DNA of 6,191 nucleotides from a virus (lineage: Duplodnaviria > Heunggongvirae > Uroviricota > Caudoviricetes). A program made the position numbers and the translations under genes. How positions within the stretch are numbered: position 1 is the stretch's first letter; each line of letters opens with the position of its first letter. Of this stretch, positions 2-6,095 are shown piece after piece. Location: IMG/VR virus record IMGVR_UViG_2703718872_000025, one strand, 5' to 3'. The notes under the pieces are model-generated. The model was not told the DNA's origin. It worked only from the letters and a program-made list of their open reading frames with translations, and did not search any database.

Positions 2-2758
2 GCGGCGAAAACGTCAGAAACGAATGCTTCAGCGTCACAACAATCAGCAGCCACATCTGCATCCACCGCGACCACGAAGGCATCAGAAGCTGCGACCTCG
101 GCCCGGGATGCGGCGGCCTCAAAAGAGGCGGCAAAATCATCAGAAACGAGCGCAGCCTCGAGCGCCAGTAGTGCAGCTTCCTCGGCAACGGCGGCAGGAA
201 ATTCCGCGAAGGCGGCAAAAACGTCCGAGACGAACGCCAGGTCTTCTGAAACGGCAGCGGGACAGAGCGCCTCAGCTGCGGCAGGCTCAAAAACAGCGGC
301 TGCGTCGTCTGCCAGTGCAGCGTCAACAAGTGCCGGGCAGGCCTCAGCCAGTGCCACCGCCGCCGGAAAATCGGCAGAAAGCGCTGCATTGTCCGCTTCA
401 ACAGCCACAACGAAGGCTGGCGAAGCCGCTGAACAGGCCAGCGCAGCAGCGAGGTCTGCATCCGCAGCGAAGACATCCGAAACGAACGCGAAAGCGTCGG
501 AAACCAGCGCAGAATCCTCAAAAACGGCAGCGGCATCGTCTGCCAGTTCGGCGGCGTCATCGGCATCATCTGCGTCTGCTTCAAAAGATGAGGCGACCAG
601 ACAGGCGTCAGCAGCGAAGGGCAGCGCCACGACGGCATCCACGAAGGCGACAGAGGCTGCTGGCAGTGCGACAGCGGCAGCACAGAGCAAAAGTACGGCG
701 GAATCCGCGGCAACGCGCGCCGAGACAGCAGCTAAACGGGCAGAGGATATTGCATCCGCCGTGGCGCTTGAGGATGCAAGTACGACGAAAAAGGGGATAG
801 TACAGCTCAGCAGTGCGACCAACAGTACGTCTGAAACGCTGGCGGCAACGCCAAAGTCAGTAAAATCAGCCTATGACAATGCAGAGAAACGTCTGCAGAA
901 AGACCAGAACGGCGCTGATATACCCGATAAGGGACGCTTCCTGAACAACATTAACGCGGTCAGTAAAACAGACTTTGCTGATAAACGTGGTATGCGTTAT
1001 GTGCGGGTTAACGCTCCTGCAGGTGCAACATCTGGAAAATATTACCCTGTTGTTGTTATGCGTTCTGCTGGCTCAGTAAGCGAACTGGCATCAAGGGTCA
1101 TTATCACCACGGCAACGCGAACCGCAGGCGATCCGATGAATAACTGCGAGTTTAACGGATTTGTTATGCCTGGTGGCTGGACTGACAGGGGGCGTTATGC
1201 TTATGGAATGTTCTGGCAATATCAAAACAATGAACGAGCCATCCACTCAATAATGATGAGTAATAAGGGCGATGATTTGCGCTCTGTGTTCTATGTTGAT
1301 GGCGCTGCTTTCCCTGTTTTTGCGTTTATCGAAGATGGCCTGTCAATATCCGCACCTGGTGCTGATCTCGTTGTTAATGATACGACCTATAAGTTTGGGG
1401 CAACAATTCCAGCGACTGAATGTATCGCGGCGGACGTTATCCTTGATTTTAAGAGTGGGCGTGGTTTTTATGAGTCCCATTCGTTAATCGTTAACGATAA
1501 CTTGTCGTGCAAAAAACTTTTTGCCACAGACGAAATTGTAGCGCGTGGTGGTAATCAGATTCGAATGATAGGTGGGGAGTATGGGGCATTATGGCGTAAT
1601 GATGGCGCTAAAACTTACCTGCTGCTTACCAATCAAGGTGATGTTTATGGTGGCTGGAATACATTAAGACCGTTTGCTATTGATAACGCAACCGGCGAAC
1701 TGGTTATTGGAACCAAACTGTCCGCAAGTCTGAACGGTAACGCATTGACAGCAACAAAGCTGCAAACGCCAAGACTGGTTTCTGGGGTTGAGTTTGATGG
1801 TTCAAAAGATATTACTTTAACCGCCGCGCATGTGGCTGCTTTTGCCAGAAGGGCAACGGATACATATGCCGATGCGGATGGTGGCGTTCCCTGGAATGCC
1901 GAATCAGGCGCTTACAATGTCACCCGCTCTGGCGACAGCTATATTCTGGTTAACTTCTATACCGGAGTCGGAAGTTGCCGGACCCTGCAGATGAAGGCGC
2001 ATTACAGAAATGGAGGTCTGTTCTACCGTTCCTCAAGAGATGGCTATGGTTTTGAGGAAGGCTGGGCAGAAGTTTATACCTCGAAAAATCTTCCACCAGA
2101 AAGCTACCCAGTTGGCGCACCAATTCCGTGGCCATCAGATACCGTTCCGTCTGGTTATGCCCTGATGCAGGGGCAGACTTTTGACAAATCTGCATACCCG
2201 AAACTTGCAGTTGCTTATCCGTCAGGCGTGATCCCTGATATGCGTGGCTGGACGATTAAGGGCAAGCCCGCCAGTGGTCGTGCCGTATTGTCTCAGGAAC
2301 AGGACGGCATTAAATCGCACACCCACAGCGCCAGCGCATCCAGTACGGATTTGGGTACGAAAACCACATCGTCGTTTGATTACGGCACTAAATCTACGAA
2401 TAACACCGGGGCACATACACACAGTGTGAGCGGCTCTACAAACTCGGCTGGAGCACACACACACTCACTAGCCAACGTGAACACGGCTAGTGCTAACTCC
2501 GGTGCTGGTAGTGCATCAACAAGATTGTCTGTTGTGCATAATCAAAACTATGCAACATCATCTGCTGGCGCACATACCCACTCACTGTCCGGCACTGCTG
2601 CAAGCGCAGGTGCACACGCACATACTGTCGGTATTGGTGCTCATACGCACTCGGTTGCGATTGGCTCACATGGACACACCATCACCGTTAACGCTGCTGG
2701 TAACGCGGAAAACACCGTCAAAAACATCGCATTTAACTATATTGTGAGGCTTGCATAA
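2..2758 (+). CDS. stf: Side tail fibre protein Stf, 5-prime partial (true start upstream of window)
   Basis: Frame 2 is open from nt 2 to the TAA at 2756-2758; the ORF-track start at 389 is only an in-frame TTG. Translation shows Ala/Ser/Thr-rich N-terminal repeats (AKTSETNA recurring), a phage-tail-fibre-repeat-like segment ([31 protein letters not shown]) and a C-terminus (GAPIPWPSD...KSHTHS...GAHTHS...[11 protein letters not shown]) that I recognise from memory as the lambda Stf / T4 gp37-type tip. No frameshift interrupts the gene within the window. Confidence 0.92.
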
Positions 2759-3342
2759 TGGCATTCAGAATGAGTGAACAACCACGGACCATAAAAATTT
2801 ATAATCTGCTGGCCGGAACTAATGAATTTATTGGTGAAGGTGACGCATATATTCCGCCTCATACAGGTCTGCCAGCAAACAGTACCGATATTGCACCGCC
2901 AGATATTCCGGCTGGCTTTGTGGCTGTTTTCAACAGTGATGAGGCATCGTGGCATCTCGTTGAAGACCATCGGGGTAAAACCGTCTATGACGTGGCTTCC
3001 GGCGACGCGTTATTTATTTCTGAACTCGGCTCATTACCGGAAAATGTCACCTGGTTATCCCCGGAAGGGGAGTTTCAGAAGTGGAACGGCACAACCTGGG
3101 TGAAAGATGCAGAAGCAGAAAAACTGTTCCGGATCCGGGAGGCGGAAGAAACAAAAAACAGCCTGATGCAGGTAGCCAGTGAGCATATTGCGCCACTTCA
3201 GGATGCTGCAGATCTGGAAATCGCAACGGAGGGAGAAACCTCGTTGCTGGAAGCCTGGAAAAAGTATCGGGTGTTGCTGAACCGTGTTGATACATCAACT
3301 GCACCTGATATTGAGTGGCCTACGAACCCTGTCAGGGAGTAA
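2758..3342 (+). CDS. tfa: Tail fibre assembly protein Tfa (194 aa)
   Basis: ATG at 2758-2760 overlaps the stf stop (TAATG), with GAGG 8 nt upstream; 194 codons ending TAA 3340-3342. Translation [24 protein letters not shown]...[39 protein letters not shown]... closely matches my recollection of lambda Tfa, which is also 194 aa. Confidence 0.92.
3178..3297 (+). repeat. Direct repeat copy A (3-prime end of intact tfa)
   Basis: Aligns without gaps to 4227-4346 with 13 mismatches in 120 nt (~89%), in the same reading frame; similarity stops abruptly on both sides. Confidence 0.85.
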
Positions 3343-3356
3343 TCATTGGGATTATG

Positions 3357-3389
3357 CCGCAGCACGTCTTAAGCAAGAACGTGCTGCGG
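3357..3389. terminator. Stem-loop between convergent tfa and methyltransferase genes; possible weak intrinsic terminator
   Basis: ccgcagcacgtctt (3357-3370), loop aagc, then aagaacgtgctgcgg (3375-3389) gives a 14-bp stem with one bulged A. On the + strand a T6 run (3400-3405) follows about 10 nt later; no U-run follows on the - strand. Non-canonical spacing, hence low confidence. Confidence 0.3.
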
Positions 3390-3396
3390 TTGGATG

Positions 3397-4053
3397 CTAT
3401 TTTTTCCCTGAAGCGGAAAACATTACTACAGTACCTTGAACCTTGGTTTTAACATTCTCGAAATGCTCTGAGAGTATATGTGTTAAGCCTTCTTCGGAAT
3501 CTTTTGTGTTTGAAAAGATGCCTTTCTGATTGTAAATGCGCATCAGTTTTTGACCGAAGCTATTGTGCACAACTCCATCGCCAAGAATTGTGGCTCCGTA
3601 TAGAGTTCCATCGTCAGTTAAGGCCTGCGCCGCATTGCGTATTACACAGCTTTTTGTAGATATATTTCCAGGCAGGCAGTGAAGAAGGTAAAACATGGAA
3701 ATGGAATCAAATTGACCATGTAACGCCGCGGGATAAGGTTCAAAAACATCATGGCTAATTTTATGTTTAATTTTTGATTCCCCAGCCCTTGTAGATGCCG
3801 CGTTCAGGCTAGCTTCGTTCAAATCCATTAAAGATATCAGACTACTCTCAGGTACGTGAGTAAGGTAAAACCCAGTTCCAACACCAATATCCAGATGGTT
3901 GTTACCTAAATGTTCCAGAAAGTGTGGAAGAAGGTGTTCCTTTGTAGGACATCCCCATGCAAGCCGATTTGATACTCCCAAAACCCACCAGTCATAAAGC
4001 TTTAGGGTAAGTGGTGTGTAAATTTTAGCCCCATCATCTGTGTTTTTTTTCAT
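3397..4053 (-). CDS. ybcY: Class I SAM-dependent methyltransferase (Rossmann-fold, small-molecule/protein type), prophage cargo; ybcY-like by genomic context
   Basis: The - strand ORF runs 4065 to 3397 (stop TAG, complement of 3397-3399). Two in-frame ATGs: 4065-4063 with no Shine-Dalgarno, and 4053-4051 preceded by GGTGA at a 5-nt spacing, so I take 4053 as the start (218 aa; 222 aa if 4065 is used). Motif I LDIGVGTG (codons at 3871-3885), acidic residue after the second strand (LMDLNE), motif II-like FDSISMFYLLHCL. Gene symbol is assigned from the tfa / MTase(-) / tfa-fragment synteny recalled for DLP12, not from sequence identity, so treat it as provisional. Confidence 0.75.
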   Translation of the reverse strand: MKKNTDDGAKIYTPLTLKLYDWWVLGVSNRLAWGCPTKEHLLPHFLEHLGNNHLDIGVGTGFYLTHVPESSLISLMDLNEASLNAASTRAGESKIKHKISHDVFEPYPAALHGQFDSISMFYLLHCLPGNISTKSCVIRNAAQALTDDGTLYGATILGDGVVHNSFGQKLMRIYNQKGIFSNTKDSEEGLTHILSEHFENVKTKVQGTVVMFSASGKK

Positions 4054-4121
4054 TAATTTCACCATGTTATAGTTTTATTTGTGAATTAAATCAATTATGG
4101 CGATGAATTACAAGGGGTTAA

Positions 4122-4427
4122 ATGCTGCCGCAGCATAGCGATATTGAAATAGCCTGGTATGCTTCGATACAGCAGGAGCCGAATAGCTGGAAGACCGTCA
4201 CCACACAGTTCTACATCCAGGAATTCAGTGAGTATATTGCGCCACTGCAGGATGCTGTAGATCTGGAAATCGCAACGGAGGAAGAAAGATCGTTGCTGGA
4301 GGCATGGAATAAATATCGGGTATTGTTGAATCGTGTTGATACATCAGTAGCTCTGGGTATGAAGCTGTTTGTAACTCATGTTACAGTAACAGCCATTACT
4401 ATCTCGAAGGTGCAAAATGTATATTGA
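4122..4427 (+). CDS. Tail fibre assembly protein C-terminal fragment (tfaX-like remnant; probably non-functional)
   Basis: 101-codon ORF with ATG at 4122 and AGGGG 5 nt upstream. Only residues ~36-75 ([40 protein letters not shown]) resemble Tfa; the flanking sequence is unrelated. Contains direct-repeat copy B. Confidence 0.5.
4227..4346 (+). repeat. Direct repeat copy B (inside tfa remnant)
   Basis: Partner of 3178-3297; 107 of 120 nt identical, ungapped, same frame. Confidence 0.85.
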
Positions 4428-4554
4428 TTTGATATTTTATAAATTTACTTCGAATCTGGCACGTCAACTTTTGATTAAAGTAATATCAGTTTTCGGCGAA
4501 AAAAGGACCGTGTACATGAGACGATTTCATACAAGAATAACAAAAATATGAATA

Positions 4555-4590
4555 TGCTCCCAATGCAATATATGTTTTGCATTGGGAGCA
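4555..4590 (-). terminator. Probable Rho-independent terminator of the hydrolase gene
   Basis: Perfect inverted repeat gctcccaatgcaa (4556-4568) / ttgcattgggagc (4577-4589) with an 8-nt loop, extendable by one T-A pair. On the - strand it begins 20 nt after the hydrolase stop codon and is followed by the U-rich stretch auauucauauuuuuguuauuc. Confidence 0.45.
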
Positions 4591-4610
4591 AATAGCGGAA
4601 TATTTTGAAA

Positions 4611-6095
4611 TTATTGTATTTCTGCTTCAGAATTTCCTGGGCAGTATATATTTTCTATTTTTTGTGGAGTGATCAGGTGATGTACAACTGCTTTATCTAC
4701 ACATAAATTAACTCCGGTGAGAGCTAATGTATGCCCATCACCATTTATTGTTAGTAACGGGCTGGAAAATTTCTCTGCCATCTTACGGGCATTAATCCAG
4801 GGCGTTGTTGGGTCGTATTTGTGTGCTACAAACAGTAAACCAGAGGGCAGAACAGTATTTTTCAGGCGAGTTTTGTTCAGGTCGCTATGTATTGGCCATA
4901 ATTCACAAAAATCAGGTGAATCGGAACGTCCATTGTCAAAGTTAATAGCCGGGAAGGCATTCGCAAGAGCGTCTTTTCGGGATTTTCGCTCTTCTGGTGT
5001 TAATTGCTCATCCCCCTGATCTACACAGAGGATTACCCCCGAAGCATCGCTTGACTCTTCTGAGGCTATCGGAGCACTGAGCGCAGTTTCAATTTCATTA
5101 CTGACAATCCCCTGAGAGAACTGGCGTATGGCAGTTGCAAGGGTTGGCCATGATGAACGCCATAGCAGAAGGTCTGTTGTTAATGATATGAGTTCACCTG
5201 AAGATATATTTTCTCCCTTACTGTCTAATAAAGGTTTGTGATGTAATTTTGATAATAGCTCATGGAAGTGAGTTATTGCCTTATCTCTGTCTGAAGAAAG
5301 CGGGCAACTTTTTGTACGCGCACACCAGGATGCAAAGCGATCAAACGTTTCCTGATAACTCTGTGCCTGTTTGAGTTGCCATGTGAAGTTGTCCTCCAGG
5401 TCATCGATATCGACGACTCCATCAAGAACGATAGATCTTACGTTGTAGGGAAAACGTTCTGCATATAAGGCTGCAATTTGAGTTCCATACGAATACGCCA
5501 CGGCTGTCAGTTGTTTATCCCCCAAGGCTTGCCTAATACGATCAATATCGTATACAGCCTCGTTAGAGCCGATATGGCGAATGACTTCGGCTCCGGTATT
5601 ATGGATACAGGCATTAATTTTATTTAATACTTGTTGCTTTTCGGTTATGTTTTCCTGAGTCTCTGTATCTGATTGCCGGCAGTTTATTGTCGGAGTGGAC
5701 TGTCCGACGCCTCGAGGATCAAATCCAATAATATCCCATGACTCACGAAGATTTGTGACTGGCCAGTCAAAGTTAATATAAGGATTTATGCCTGGTAACC
5801 CGGGACCACCACTTATTATCAGGATACTTCCTTTATGCTTGCTTTTTGCCGGCAATTTTGTCAACGCTAGTTTGACTTGTGATTTTTTTTCATAAGAAGC
5901 ATCTCCGCCTGTGTCTGTATATTTTAATGGAACAGACAAATAACCACATAGTAAGTCAGGAGACGGTTTTTCCTCACCAAACCAGTGGTTGAATTGACTG
6001 GCCATACAGGATTGCCACTGTATCTGCTGGGCAGATACGGTTACTGGTAGAAGTAACGTTAAAACAACTTTGAAATGAGTAATTATTTTTCGCAT
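4611..6095 (-). CDS. Secreted/periplasmic alpha/beta-hydrolase, S33 (prolyl/tripeptidyl aminopeptidase, TAP-like) family serine hydrolase
   Basis: 494 codons from ATG (complement of 6093-6095) to TAA (complement of 4611-4613). N-terminus MRKIITHFKVVLTLLLPVTVSA/QQ looks like a Sec signal peptide with no lipobox. Ordered motifs: IISGGPGLPG (oxyanion-hole region), GFDPRGVGQS, AYSYG nucleophile elbow (Ser codon 5490-5492), then KYDPTTP and GDGHT near the C-terminus as candidate Asp and His of the triad. Confidence 0.85.
   Translation of the reverse strand: MRKIITHFKVVLTLLLPVTVSAQQIQWQSCMASQFNHWFGEEKPSPDLLCGYLSVPLKYTDTGGDASYEKKSQVKLALTKLPAKSKHKGSILIISGGPGLPGINPYINFDWPVTNLRESWDIIGFDPRGVGQSTPTINCRQSDTETQENITEKQQVLNKINACIHNTGAEVIRHIGSNEAVYDIDRIRQALGDKQLTAVAYSYGTQIAALYAERFPYNVRSIVLDGVVDIDDLEDNFTWQLKQAQSYQETFDRFASWCARTKSCPLSSDRDKAITHFHELLSKLHHKPLLDSKGENISSGELISLTTDLLLWRSSWPTLATAIRQFSQGIVSNEIETALSAPIASEESSDASGVILCVDQGDEQLTPEERKSRKDALANAFPAINFDNGRSDSPDFCELWPIHSDLNKTRLKNTVLPSGLLFVAHKYDPTTPWINARKMAEKFSSPLLTINGDGHTLALTGVNLCVDKAVVHHLITPQKIENIYCPGNSEAEIQ

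Follow-up and report, generated by a model that had tools for sequence, protein, structure and literature searches.

What kind of enzyme is encoded by a methyltransferase gene that stands alone among the tail genes of a lambdoid prophage, and could its target be DNA? The question is raised by a 6,191-nucleotide stretch of the Caudoviricetes record IMGVR_UViG_2703718872_000025 (the window, always meant at its full length). On its minus strand, at 3397..4053, the window carries the coding sequence of a ybcY-family class I S-adenosylmethionine (SAM)-dependent methyltransferase of 218 amino acids, an assignment based on an intact open reading frame (ORF), Pfam matches, the phrog_2132 profile, an alignment of homologues and an AlphaFold model. 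An initial annotation, made from the sequence alone, had called the gene intact orphan cargo encoding a methyltransferase of the small-molecule or protein type, not a DNA methyltransferase. Our results agree with it, as the Pfam matches are generic, the weak NCBIfam matches are to small-molecule enzymes and the structural neighbours act on small molecules or lipids. We consider it rather probable that the product is a stand-alone cytoplasmic class I SAM-dependent methyltransferase of the YbcY/phrog_2132 family, predicted to be active and not to methylate DNA. The gene is a known and annotated one, ybcY (phrog_2132; RefSeq WP_000239881.1, 'class I SAM-dependent methyltransferase').

The ORF was uninterrupted from 3397 to 4065 on the minus strand (222 amino acids counted from the first ATG), and neither a frameshift nor a stop codon was found in the gene, which is intact as claimed. 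Residue numbers throughout refer to the 222-residue form; 4 is to be subtracted for the 218-residue form, whose start is M5. All class I motifs named in the initial annotation were located: the glycine-rich motif I, LDIGVGTG, at residues 58-65 and the end of strand beta-1; the acidic residue D81 within LMDLN at the end of beta-2; and FDSISMFYLLHCL at residues 119-131. The protein thus has the marks of a class I SAM-dependent methyltransferase, namely a GxGxG motif I, acidic residues at beta-2 and beta-3, a seven-strand sheet and profile matches above cut-off. In Pfam, Methyltransf_12, Methyltransf_23, Methyltransf_25 and Methyltransf_11 scored above their gathering cut-offs, all of them generic families, and Methyltransf_31 and MTS scored below theirs. 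Every test run supported the conclusion that the protein belongs to this class and has no DNA-methyltransferase features.

Orphan DNA methyltransferases are frequent in phages, and a protein with a SAM-binding fold encoded in a prophage might serve phage anti-restriction or epigenetic control by methylating DNA. We regard this as extremely unlikely here. A regular expression for [DNS]PP[YFW] found no match in the protein, whose sequence after beta-4 reads MFYLLHCLPG, and none was found for the PC dipeptide of motif IV of C5-methyltransferases, so both absences asserted earlier were real. The tripeptide ENV at residues 203-205, which could be counted in favour of a DNA methyltransferase, is not conserved among the homologues and is meaningless without the PC motif. 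No DNA-methylase family of Pfam, PF00145 included, matched even at E ≤ 10. The N6_N4_Mtase, MethyltransfD12, N6_Mtase, Dam and MT-A70 profiles did not recognize the protein, nor did it contain a target-recognition domain; profile classification, which had been proposed as a check, returned class I SAM-dependent methyltransferase families and no DNA-methylase profile. Its sole match in PADLOC, to mad2 (E = 0.0033, 14.3 bits), is not meaningful and does not place it in a defence system. The initial annotation had also argued from size. The size (about 218 amino acids) was right and no target-recognition domain was found, but size is weak by itself: because some phage DNA adenine methyltransferases are shorter than 200 amino acids, the verdict is carried by the motif and fold evidence.

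Restriction-modification was likewise not indicated by the gene's surroundings. Neither an endonuclease nor a specificity subunit adjoins the methyltransferase, and no recurrent nuclease family was found near its homologues in 77 species. No nuclease is among the adjoining genes in the window, which are a tail-fibre assembly gene, a tfaX remnant and an alpha/beta hydrolase gene, and the description as orphan cargo without a nuclease partner therefore held. Moreover, the family also occurs as a stand-alone chromosomal gene in many phyla and in a fungus, which speaks against a phage DNA methyltransferase. The protein lies outside the DNA amino-methyltransferase and C5-methyltransferase families, restriction-modification, the PADLOC systems and the CysG/BelI family discussed below. 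We know of no claim by anyone that the ybcY product is a DNA methyltransferase.

The profile and structure neighbours point to small substrates. An NCBIfam scan of 79 diverse family members gave weak matches to BioC (34 of 79), UbiE/MenG, CpaM, NodS, MpqE and UbiG, families that act on small molecules or acyl carriers. No family-specific match for the methyltransferase was found in NCBIfam, in PADLOC or in sequence searches of solved structures. With 30 homologues as input, AlphaFold2 gave a model (mean predicted local distance difference test score, pLDDT, 90.3) that has a single domain with a seven-strand Rossmann-like fold, in which the strands span residues 56-60, 76-81, 99-104, 119-125, 149-160, 202-210 and 213-221, two N-terminal helices form a lid and a C-terminal antiparallel hairpin closes the sheet. 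The structural comparison that the initial annotation had called for was made with this model. The best Foldseek matches in the PDB were PmtA, JHAMT, phosphoethanolamine methyltransferases, SgvM, NodS and CysG, and further matches were MM_2633, BelI, DhpI and RebM, all of them small-molecule or lipid methyltransferases; no DNA methyltransferase was among the matches listed (top 60 and top 50). A search of viral structures in BFVD returned generic class I matches only. PmtA ranked first (E = 5e-12, template modelling (TM) score 0.61, 15% identity; profile E = 3e-4 over the Rossmann core), and the similarity to it is at fold level only. MM_2633 (PDB 3DTN), DhpI, JHAMT and PmtA are class I methyltransferases of small size that act on small molecules or lipids; they share 12-21% identity and a TM-score of about 0.6 with the window protein and lack the YbcY family motifs.

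Judged by its sequence, the window protein is a member of the YbcY/phrog_2132 family. Positions 1-218 of the phrog_2132 profile matched residues 5-222 over their full length (E = 7.9e-157), and the family motifs YDWWVL..SN..AW.C.T, YLLHCLPG and YN.KGIFSN..D are present with all invariant columns kept. A profile search of 1.84 billion cluster representatives retrieved 1,742 proteins with E ≤ 0.001, of which 418 (50% clustering) reached E < 1e-30; nearly all have 210-240 amino acids and match over their full length. The names given to members go no further than 'class I SAM-dependent methyltransferase' or an automatically transferred 'UbiE'. With one genome taken per species, members were found in Enterobacterales, Pseudomonas, Dyella, Burkholderiales, Vibrio, Acidobacteria, Nostoc, Pseudarthrobacter, Oceanobacillus and others, and one comes from the fungus Aspergillus wentii. 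Conservation was assessed in 79 diverse members that are 32-56% identical to the window protein. Among the residues of the SAM site, H57, G61, G63, G65, D81 and S121 were invariant or nearly so, with G61 invariant and G63 and G65 conserved in at least 90%. A second, family-specific set of invariant or nearly invariant residues comprised Y24, D25, W37, C39, H129, C130, N186 and D189; of these, C39, H129, N186 and D189 were invariant over Proteobacteria, Actinobacteria, Bacteroidota and the fungus.

The neighbourhoods of 77 loci from different species were then compared by ORF calling and all-against-all BLASTP clustering. No conserved neighbour was found in these loci, the commonest families being short-chain dehydrogenase/reductase (14), LysR (10) and ABC-F (10), all generic. 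Since no neighbour is shared, the gene is an orphan over its entire range and not just in the prophage. No functional study was found in the literature on ybcY, STM1638 or the vap-island gene, two homologues described below.

The closest solved structures in a PDB profile search were CysG variants (E ~1e-6). CysG and BelI (PDB 9FCD, 9FCE) act in the biosynthesis of cystargolide and belactosin as carboxyl O-methyltransferases that depend on Ca2+, and have a metal site formed by His122, His123 and Asp191 (PMC11408123). Like the window protein they have about 215-230 residues, an N-terminal helical lid and SAM contacts that can be aligned. We fixed the CysG numbering through crystallographically assigned contacts (chain index + 14), and the mutant chains 9FCQ (H123A) and 9FCS (H123N) confirmed the register. 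In the HMMER alignment G61 corresponds to Gly54, D81 to Asp77, D106 to Asp102 and H129-C130 to His122-His123. The ribose-binding D81 and adenine-binding D106 thereby align with CysG residues of those roles (PMC11408123), and the metal ligand His122 aligns with the invariant His129 of the YbcY family. A profile of CysG relatives, built from the partial homologues that a 100-residue CysG fragment retrieved from a large protein database, aligned in hhalign with 98.2% probability over columns 54-162. The differences are considerable. Identity is 15-19%, CysG His123 is replaced by Cys130, and the carboxylate-binding Arg22 of CysG was unmapped. The CysG and BelI genes lie in beta-lactone or alkylmalate biosynthetic clusters, whereas the window gene lies among prophage tail genes and its family has no conserved neighbour in the 77 loci. 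The resemblance is therefore one of mechanism type only and not of membership.

On this basis a mechanism can be proposed for the predicted enzyme. The methyl group of SAM would be passed by bimolecular nucleophilic substitution (SN2) to a heteroatom of a low-molecular-weight substrate. The acceptor that we favour is the oxygen of an acidic group (a carboxylate or phosph(on)ate), given that the enzyme's closest neighbours by profile and structure, CysG/BelI, DhpI, JHAMT and BioC, are O-methyltransferases of acids. We would place the substrate between the invariant lid residues (Y24, D25, W37 and C39) and the invariant His129-Cys130 pair after beta-4, possibly with a bound metal, and N186 and D189 are candidates for further ligands. 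It is probably a common cellular metabolite or an exogenous compound, because no lineage conserves a neighbouring gene. The gene would then be self-sufficient lysogenic-conversion cargo that is expressed in the lysogen.

Several points weigh against this reading. Enzymes of the Methyltransf_11/12 type generally have a His where the pair begins, and the CysG ligand Asp191 has no mapped equivalent, as it lies beyond the end of the alignment (hhalign and HMMER stop at about residue 160, column 162), which leaves N186 and D189 as candidates. The family contains no characterised member and no solved structure, and the best sequence match (E ~1e-6) covers the Rossmann core only. In addition, H-NS binding at the promoter, described below, suggests that the gene may be silenced under laboratory conditions. 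Because the His is generic and the acid O-methyltransferase neighbours are merely a trend, we offer metal binding by the His-Cys pair as a hypothesis.

Nor do these data narrow the 'small-molecule or protein type' of the initial annotation, and an RNA or protein substrate is possible. The target might be a non-DNA macromolecule, either a protein such as a ribosomal or phage protein, or a tRNA or rRNA; a gene without partners would fit a substrate found in every cell. The MTS family of Pfam (RsmC/PrmC-type small domain) matched weakly, at E = 5e-4 and below its cut-off, and a few family members weakly matched PrmC/HemK-type NCBIfam models. We nevertheless judge a macromolecular target to be unlikely. 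The 218 residues amount to a catalytic domain and a short helical lid, with no RNA- or protein-binding extension, and the isoelectric point is neutral (6.9). The NPPY motif of PrmC/RsmC-type enzymes is absent, and the strongest profile matches are to small-molecule enzymes. The patchy spread of the family on mobile elements is also unlike that of a core modifier of the translation apparatus. A small acid as substrate of the YbcY-family enzyme remains our preferred reading.

Next, we placed the gene in its genomic context. A 901-nt segment around the methyltransferase gene was 100% identical to Escherichia coli 2012EL-2448, in which a complete lambdoid prophage has this segment at its right end, in the order tape measure ... 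J - lom - stfR - tfa - methyltransferase (antisense) - tail-fibre-assembly remnant - alpha/beta hydrolase - ompT - envY - ybcH - nfrA. In MG1655 the order is nohD - aaaD' - tfaD - ybcY - tfaX - appY - ompT, and the DLP12 region of strain 9FA matches MG1655 in layout and coordinates. The locus is the DLP12 site, and the methyltransferase gene is the ybcY of a lambdoid prophage integrated beside tRNA-Arg. K-12 thus has the same gene at the same locus (tfaD - ybcY - tfaX, near ompT); it differs in having a truncated DLP12 and appY, where the window side has a full prophage and the alpha/beta hydrolase. In ev243, a lambdoid phage that has been sequenced, methyltransferase - tfaX remnant - alpha/beta hydrolase - ompT have the tail genes on one side and the integrase on the other, which makes the whole block b-region cargo of the phage.

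The initial annotation had described the K-12 ybcY as a pseudogene, and this was accurate. The gene (b0562) is annotated as a frameshifted pseudogene in NC_000913, and an alignment of the two alleles gave 99% DNA identity over gene and flanks, confirming both the relationship and the intactness of the window copy. The K-12 lesion is a 2-bp deletion that, at window positions 4051-4065 on the minus strand, turns ATGAAAAAAAAC into AT--AAAAAAAC. In codons, TTA ATG AAA AAA AAC becomes TTA AT- -AA AAA AAC, with loss of the G of the start codon and one A of an A8 run. Downstream of the lesion the K-12 frame is open and has two missense changes (K to R and F to S). The K-12 defect is a lost start codon with no internal disruption, and the window copy is intact. 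As a homopolymer, the A8 run at codons 2-4 may invite slippage. With a 77-nt probe of the start site, the K-12-type deletion was found in 2 of 20 evenly spaced E. coli records, the two being laboratory strains, which gives a rough frequency of about one in ten.

A sigma-70 promoter, TTGATT-17-TATAAC, lies at 4094..4066 on the minus strand and was identified by an exact match to hexamers from the literature; the window contains a single match to this pattern, where chance alone would give 0. Identical hexamers form the constitutive RpoD promoter of K-12 ybcY, and an H-NS site lies in the ybcY/tfaX spacer (PMC3946193). The promoter bears on the start codon. RefSeq's 222-residue model includes a four-codon in-frame extension, ATG GTG AAA TTA (4054..4065, minus strand), which is absent from the homologues and contains a Shine-Dalgarno-like GGTGA at 4063-4059 (minus strand). 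Because the -10 hexamer ends at 4066 and abuts the ATG at 4065, this ATG likely falls outside the mRNA, and it is probably not used, leaving the extension untranslated. The 218-residue form (3397-4053) has the N-terminus MKKNTDD, its Met is the start in 29 of 29 aligned homologues, and RefSeq itself gives this form in strain GPEC60-33-648.

Could the gene then be a decaying or silent passenger without present function in the lysogen? The dead K-12 allele, the 2-bp start-site deletion in about one tenth of records, H-NS binding in the promoter region and a vap-island homologue with a degenerate SAM motif (see below) all speak for it, and one assay was found in which deletion of K-12 ybcY gave no phenotype. 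That assay, however, used a strain whose gene was already dead. The window allele is intact and keeps all catalytic-site invariants, and the 222-residue form is the dominant one, with 6,589 sequences in its 90%-identity cluster. Across phyla the family is 34-68% identical and retains 8 invariant and 22 nearly invariant columns. In GPEC60-33-648 decay of the prophage has left remnants of the integrase and tfa genes by tRNA-Arg, yet the methyltransferase gene is intact and adjoins ompT (locus stretch 1974-4951); here the cargo has outlived the phage. Differences between this allele and that of the window are mainly synonymous (4 synonymous, 2 non-synonymous; ratio of non-synonymous to synonymous rates, dN/dS, 0.14) and, although the events are very few, appear consistent with purifying selection. 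The adjacency of ompT and ybcY has also been reported in CFT073, UTI89, 536, J96 and E2348/69 (PMC6854850, on OmpT-like proteases). On this balance we consider a functionless passenger quite improbable and hold to an active enzyme.

The gene is also widespread. Its region (at least 80% coverage) was present in 3,797 of 5,426 complete E. coli genomes (about 70%), with up to five copies per genome, and 14 sequenced Escherichia phage records carry the methyltransferase at 99% protein identity or more. The suggestion that an apparently intact copy would allow functional study therefore stands in part: the window copy is indeed intact, but it is not special.

The layout of the window marks the methyltransferase gene as an insert. 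Beyond its 3' end lies the intact tail-fibre assembly gene (2758..3342, plus strand; Pfam Caudo_TAP, E = 9.6e-44, and RefSeq), the last gene of the late operon, which converges with the methyltransferase gene. A strong hairpin, recognized by its fold energy, lies between the two convergent genes at 3346..3379 on both strands (-23.9 kcal/mol, z = -5.4, on the minus strand; -28.5 kcal/mol, z = -4.6, on the plus strand). It is likely a bidirectional terminator or a 3'-end stabiliser; the minus strand has no canonical U-run, and the terminator role is therefore putative. On the other side lies the tfaX remnant (4122..4427, plus strand), whose Caudo_TAP match is limited to profile positions 75-121 and which RefSeq lists as an incomplete tail-fibre assembly pseudogene. 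The methyltransferase cassette is bracketed by a 132-nt direct repeat on the plus strand, with its left copy at 3166..3297, in the 3' end of the intact tail-fibre assembly gene, and its right copy at 4215..4346, within the tfaX remnant; the copies are 87% identical and spaced by 1049 nt. Because these repeats of tail-fibre-assembly 3' ends flank it, the arrangement suggests that the cassette was gained, or can be lost, through recombination between tail-fibre modules. The methyltransferase gene is an independent transcription unit, parted by the hairpin from the convergent tfa, and the upstream hydrolase gene has its own terminator-like hairpin (4590-4555). With a promoter of its own, an antisense orientation relative to the late operon of the phage and the 3' end of a tail-fibre-assembly gene on either side, the methyltransferase gene is cargo of the 'moron' type.

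On the opposite strand, the 3' end of the methyltransferase gene is overlapped by an ORF of 45 amino acids (3315-3452, plus strand). RefSeq names its product 'hypothetical protein' in one genome and 'nucleocapsid protein' in those resembling K-12; no PHROG matched it, and the gene call is probably spurious.

The neighbouring cargo gene, at 4611..6095 on the minus strand, encodes a TAP-like alpha/beta hydrolase of 494 amino acids (Pfam Abhydrolase_1 and Abhydrolase_4; phrog_20134). Almost all of it is covered by a match to a candidate-defence model of PADLOC, PDLC01094 ('C3a206 TAP-like protein'; E = 3.2e-55), and from a reading of the sequence its N-terminus looks like a signal peptide. The hydrolase was found in 1,226 of the 5,426 E. 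coli genomes and in phage ev243. It is not an obligate partner of the methyltransferase, because the latter is present in 3,797 genomes and K-12 has appY at that position. Chromosomal copies of the methyltransferase gene in Erwinia and Yersinia also lie near carboxylesterase or GDSL-lipase genes, with no consistent linkage over species. A pairing with an esterase or lipase, as seen in the window and in these loci, was considered and rejected: the hydrolase is present in about one third of methyltransferase-bearing E. coli, K-12 has appY instead, and the recurring neighbour clusters identified in the 77 loci included no hydrolase family.

Members of the family are also carried by other mobile elements. 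On plasmids of hypervirulent Klebsiella pneumoniae, a full-length member about 65% identical to the window protein was found in 603 Klebsiella plasmid records (e.g. pWSCRKP-1, locus stretch 6995-7648), near rmpD, rmpC and peg-344, and the plasmids frequently carry the homologue at two places. A 'putative SAM-dependent methyltransferase' adjoining rmpA has been described as a marker of liver abscess and hypervirulence, through linkage (PMC5126061, PMC9372168). From the gene order we infer that BAH65943 of pK2044 corresponds to WP_011251259.1. As in the window, the Klebsiella gene is isolated cargo on a mobile element; unlike it, it lies on a plasmid beside insertion sequence (IS) elements and rmpA/rmpD/rmpC/peg-344 and not in a prophage. 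In hypervirulent Klebsiella, then, a family member serves as a statistical marker.

In Salmonella enterica a chromosomal member (56% identical) adjoins cybB (locus stretch 8001-8663), and we take it to be STM1638. The gene of the small RNA (sRNA) rydC lies between STM1638, annotated as a putative methyltransferase that depends on SAM, and the cybB gene (PMC11340327). This member is of the same family as that of the window, but it is a fixed chromosomal gene. As a side observation, rydC activates cyclopropane fatty acid synthase, another SAM-dependent methyltransferase, and its adjacency to STM1638 may be coincidental.

Virulence plasmids of Rhodococcus equi carry members too. The copy on pVAPB1413 (34% identical) lies between lsr2 and the virR operon (locus stretch 7962-8723), in agreement with the description of a conserved methyltransferase gene, other than a vap gene, in the R. 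equi vap island (PMC5434932; pVAPA_0470 locus). Its glycine loop is degenerate (GARSA, in HLEVGARSAW), the acidic beta-2 residue is missing and Arg replaces Cys130, and the copy is probably non-catalytic and pseudo-enzyme-like. By contrast, the pVAPN match (42% identity; locus stretch 6968-7654) keeps all the motifs that are degenerate in the pVAPB copy, and its neighbours differ, being a CopG regulator, a sigma factor and an SOS-response peptidase. A further member (53% identical) was found on pEA29, the ubiquitous fire-blight plasmid of Erwinia amylovora, by choline transporter and recombinase genes (locus stretch 6001-6660), and a plasmid of R. fascians D188 carries a family member as well.

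The finding is correct but ordinary. The gene was already known, and as stated the result matters little, the gene being common in E. coli and its RefSeq annotation already in place. A wider reading would be that the YbcY family is a host-adaptation enzyme, repeatedly captured by mobile elements of animal and plant pathogens, that methylates a host-derived or stress-related small acid or other metabolite, thereby neutralising or changing it, through a His-Cys(-Asp/Asn) site not described before. The instances of capture would be the E. coli prophage cargo by ompT, the hypervirulent Klebsiella plasmid by rmpA, the R. equi vap island, pEA29 and the R. fascians plasmid. We hold this to be very improbable as a whole; if true, the family would stand for a new class of detoxifying methyltransferases that are assisted by metal and take part in virulence. 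For the lysogen, the identity of the substrate would decide between a true lysogenic-conversion or virulence function and a neutral passenger, and the natural null of K-12 together with the intact window allele makes a ready-made isogenic pair.

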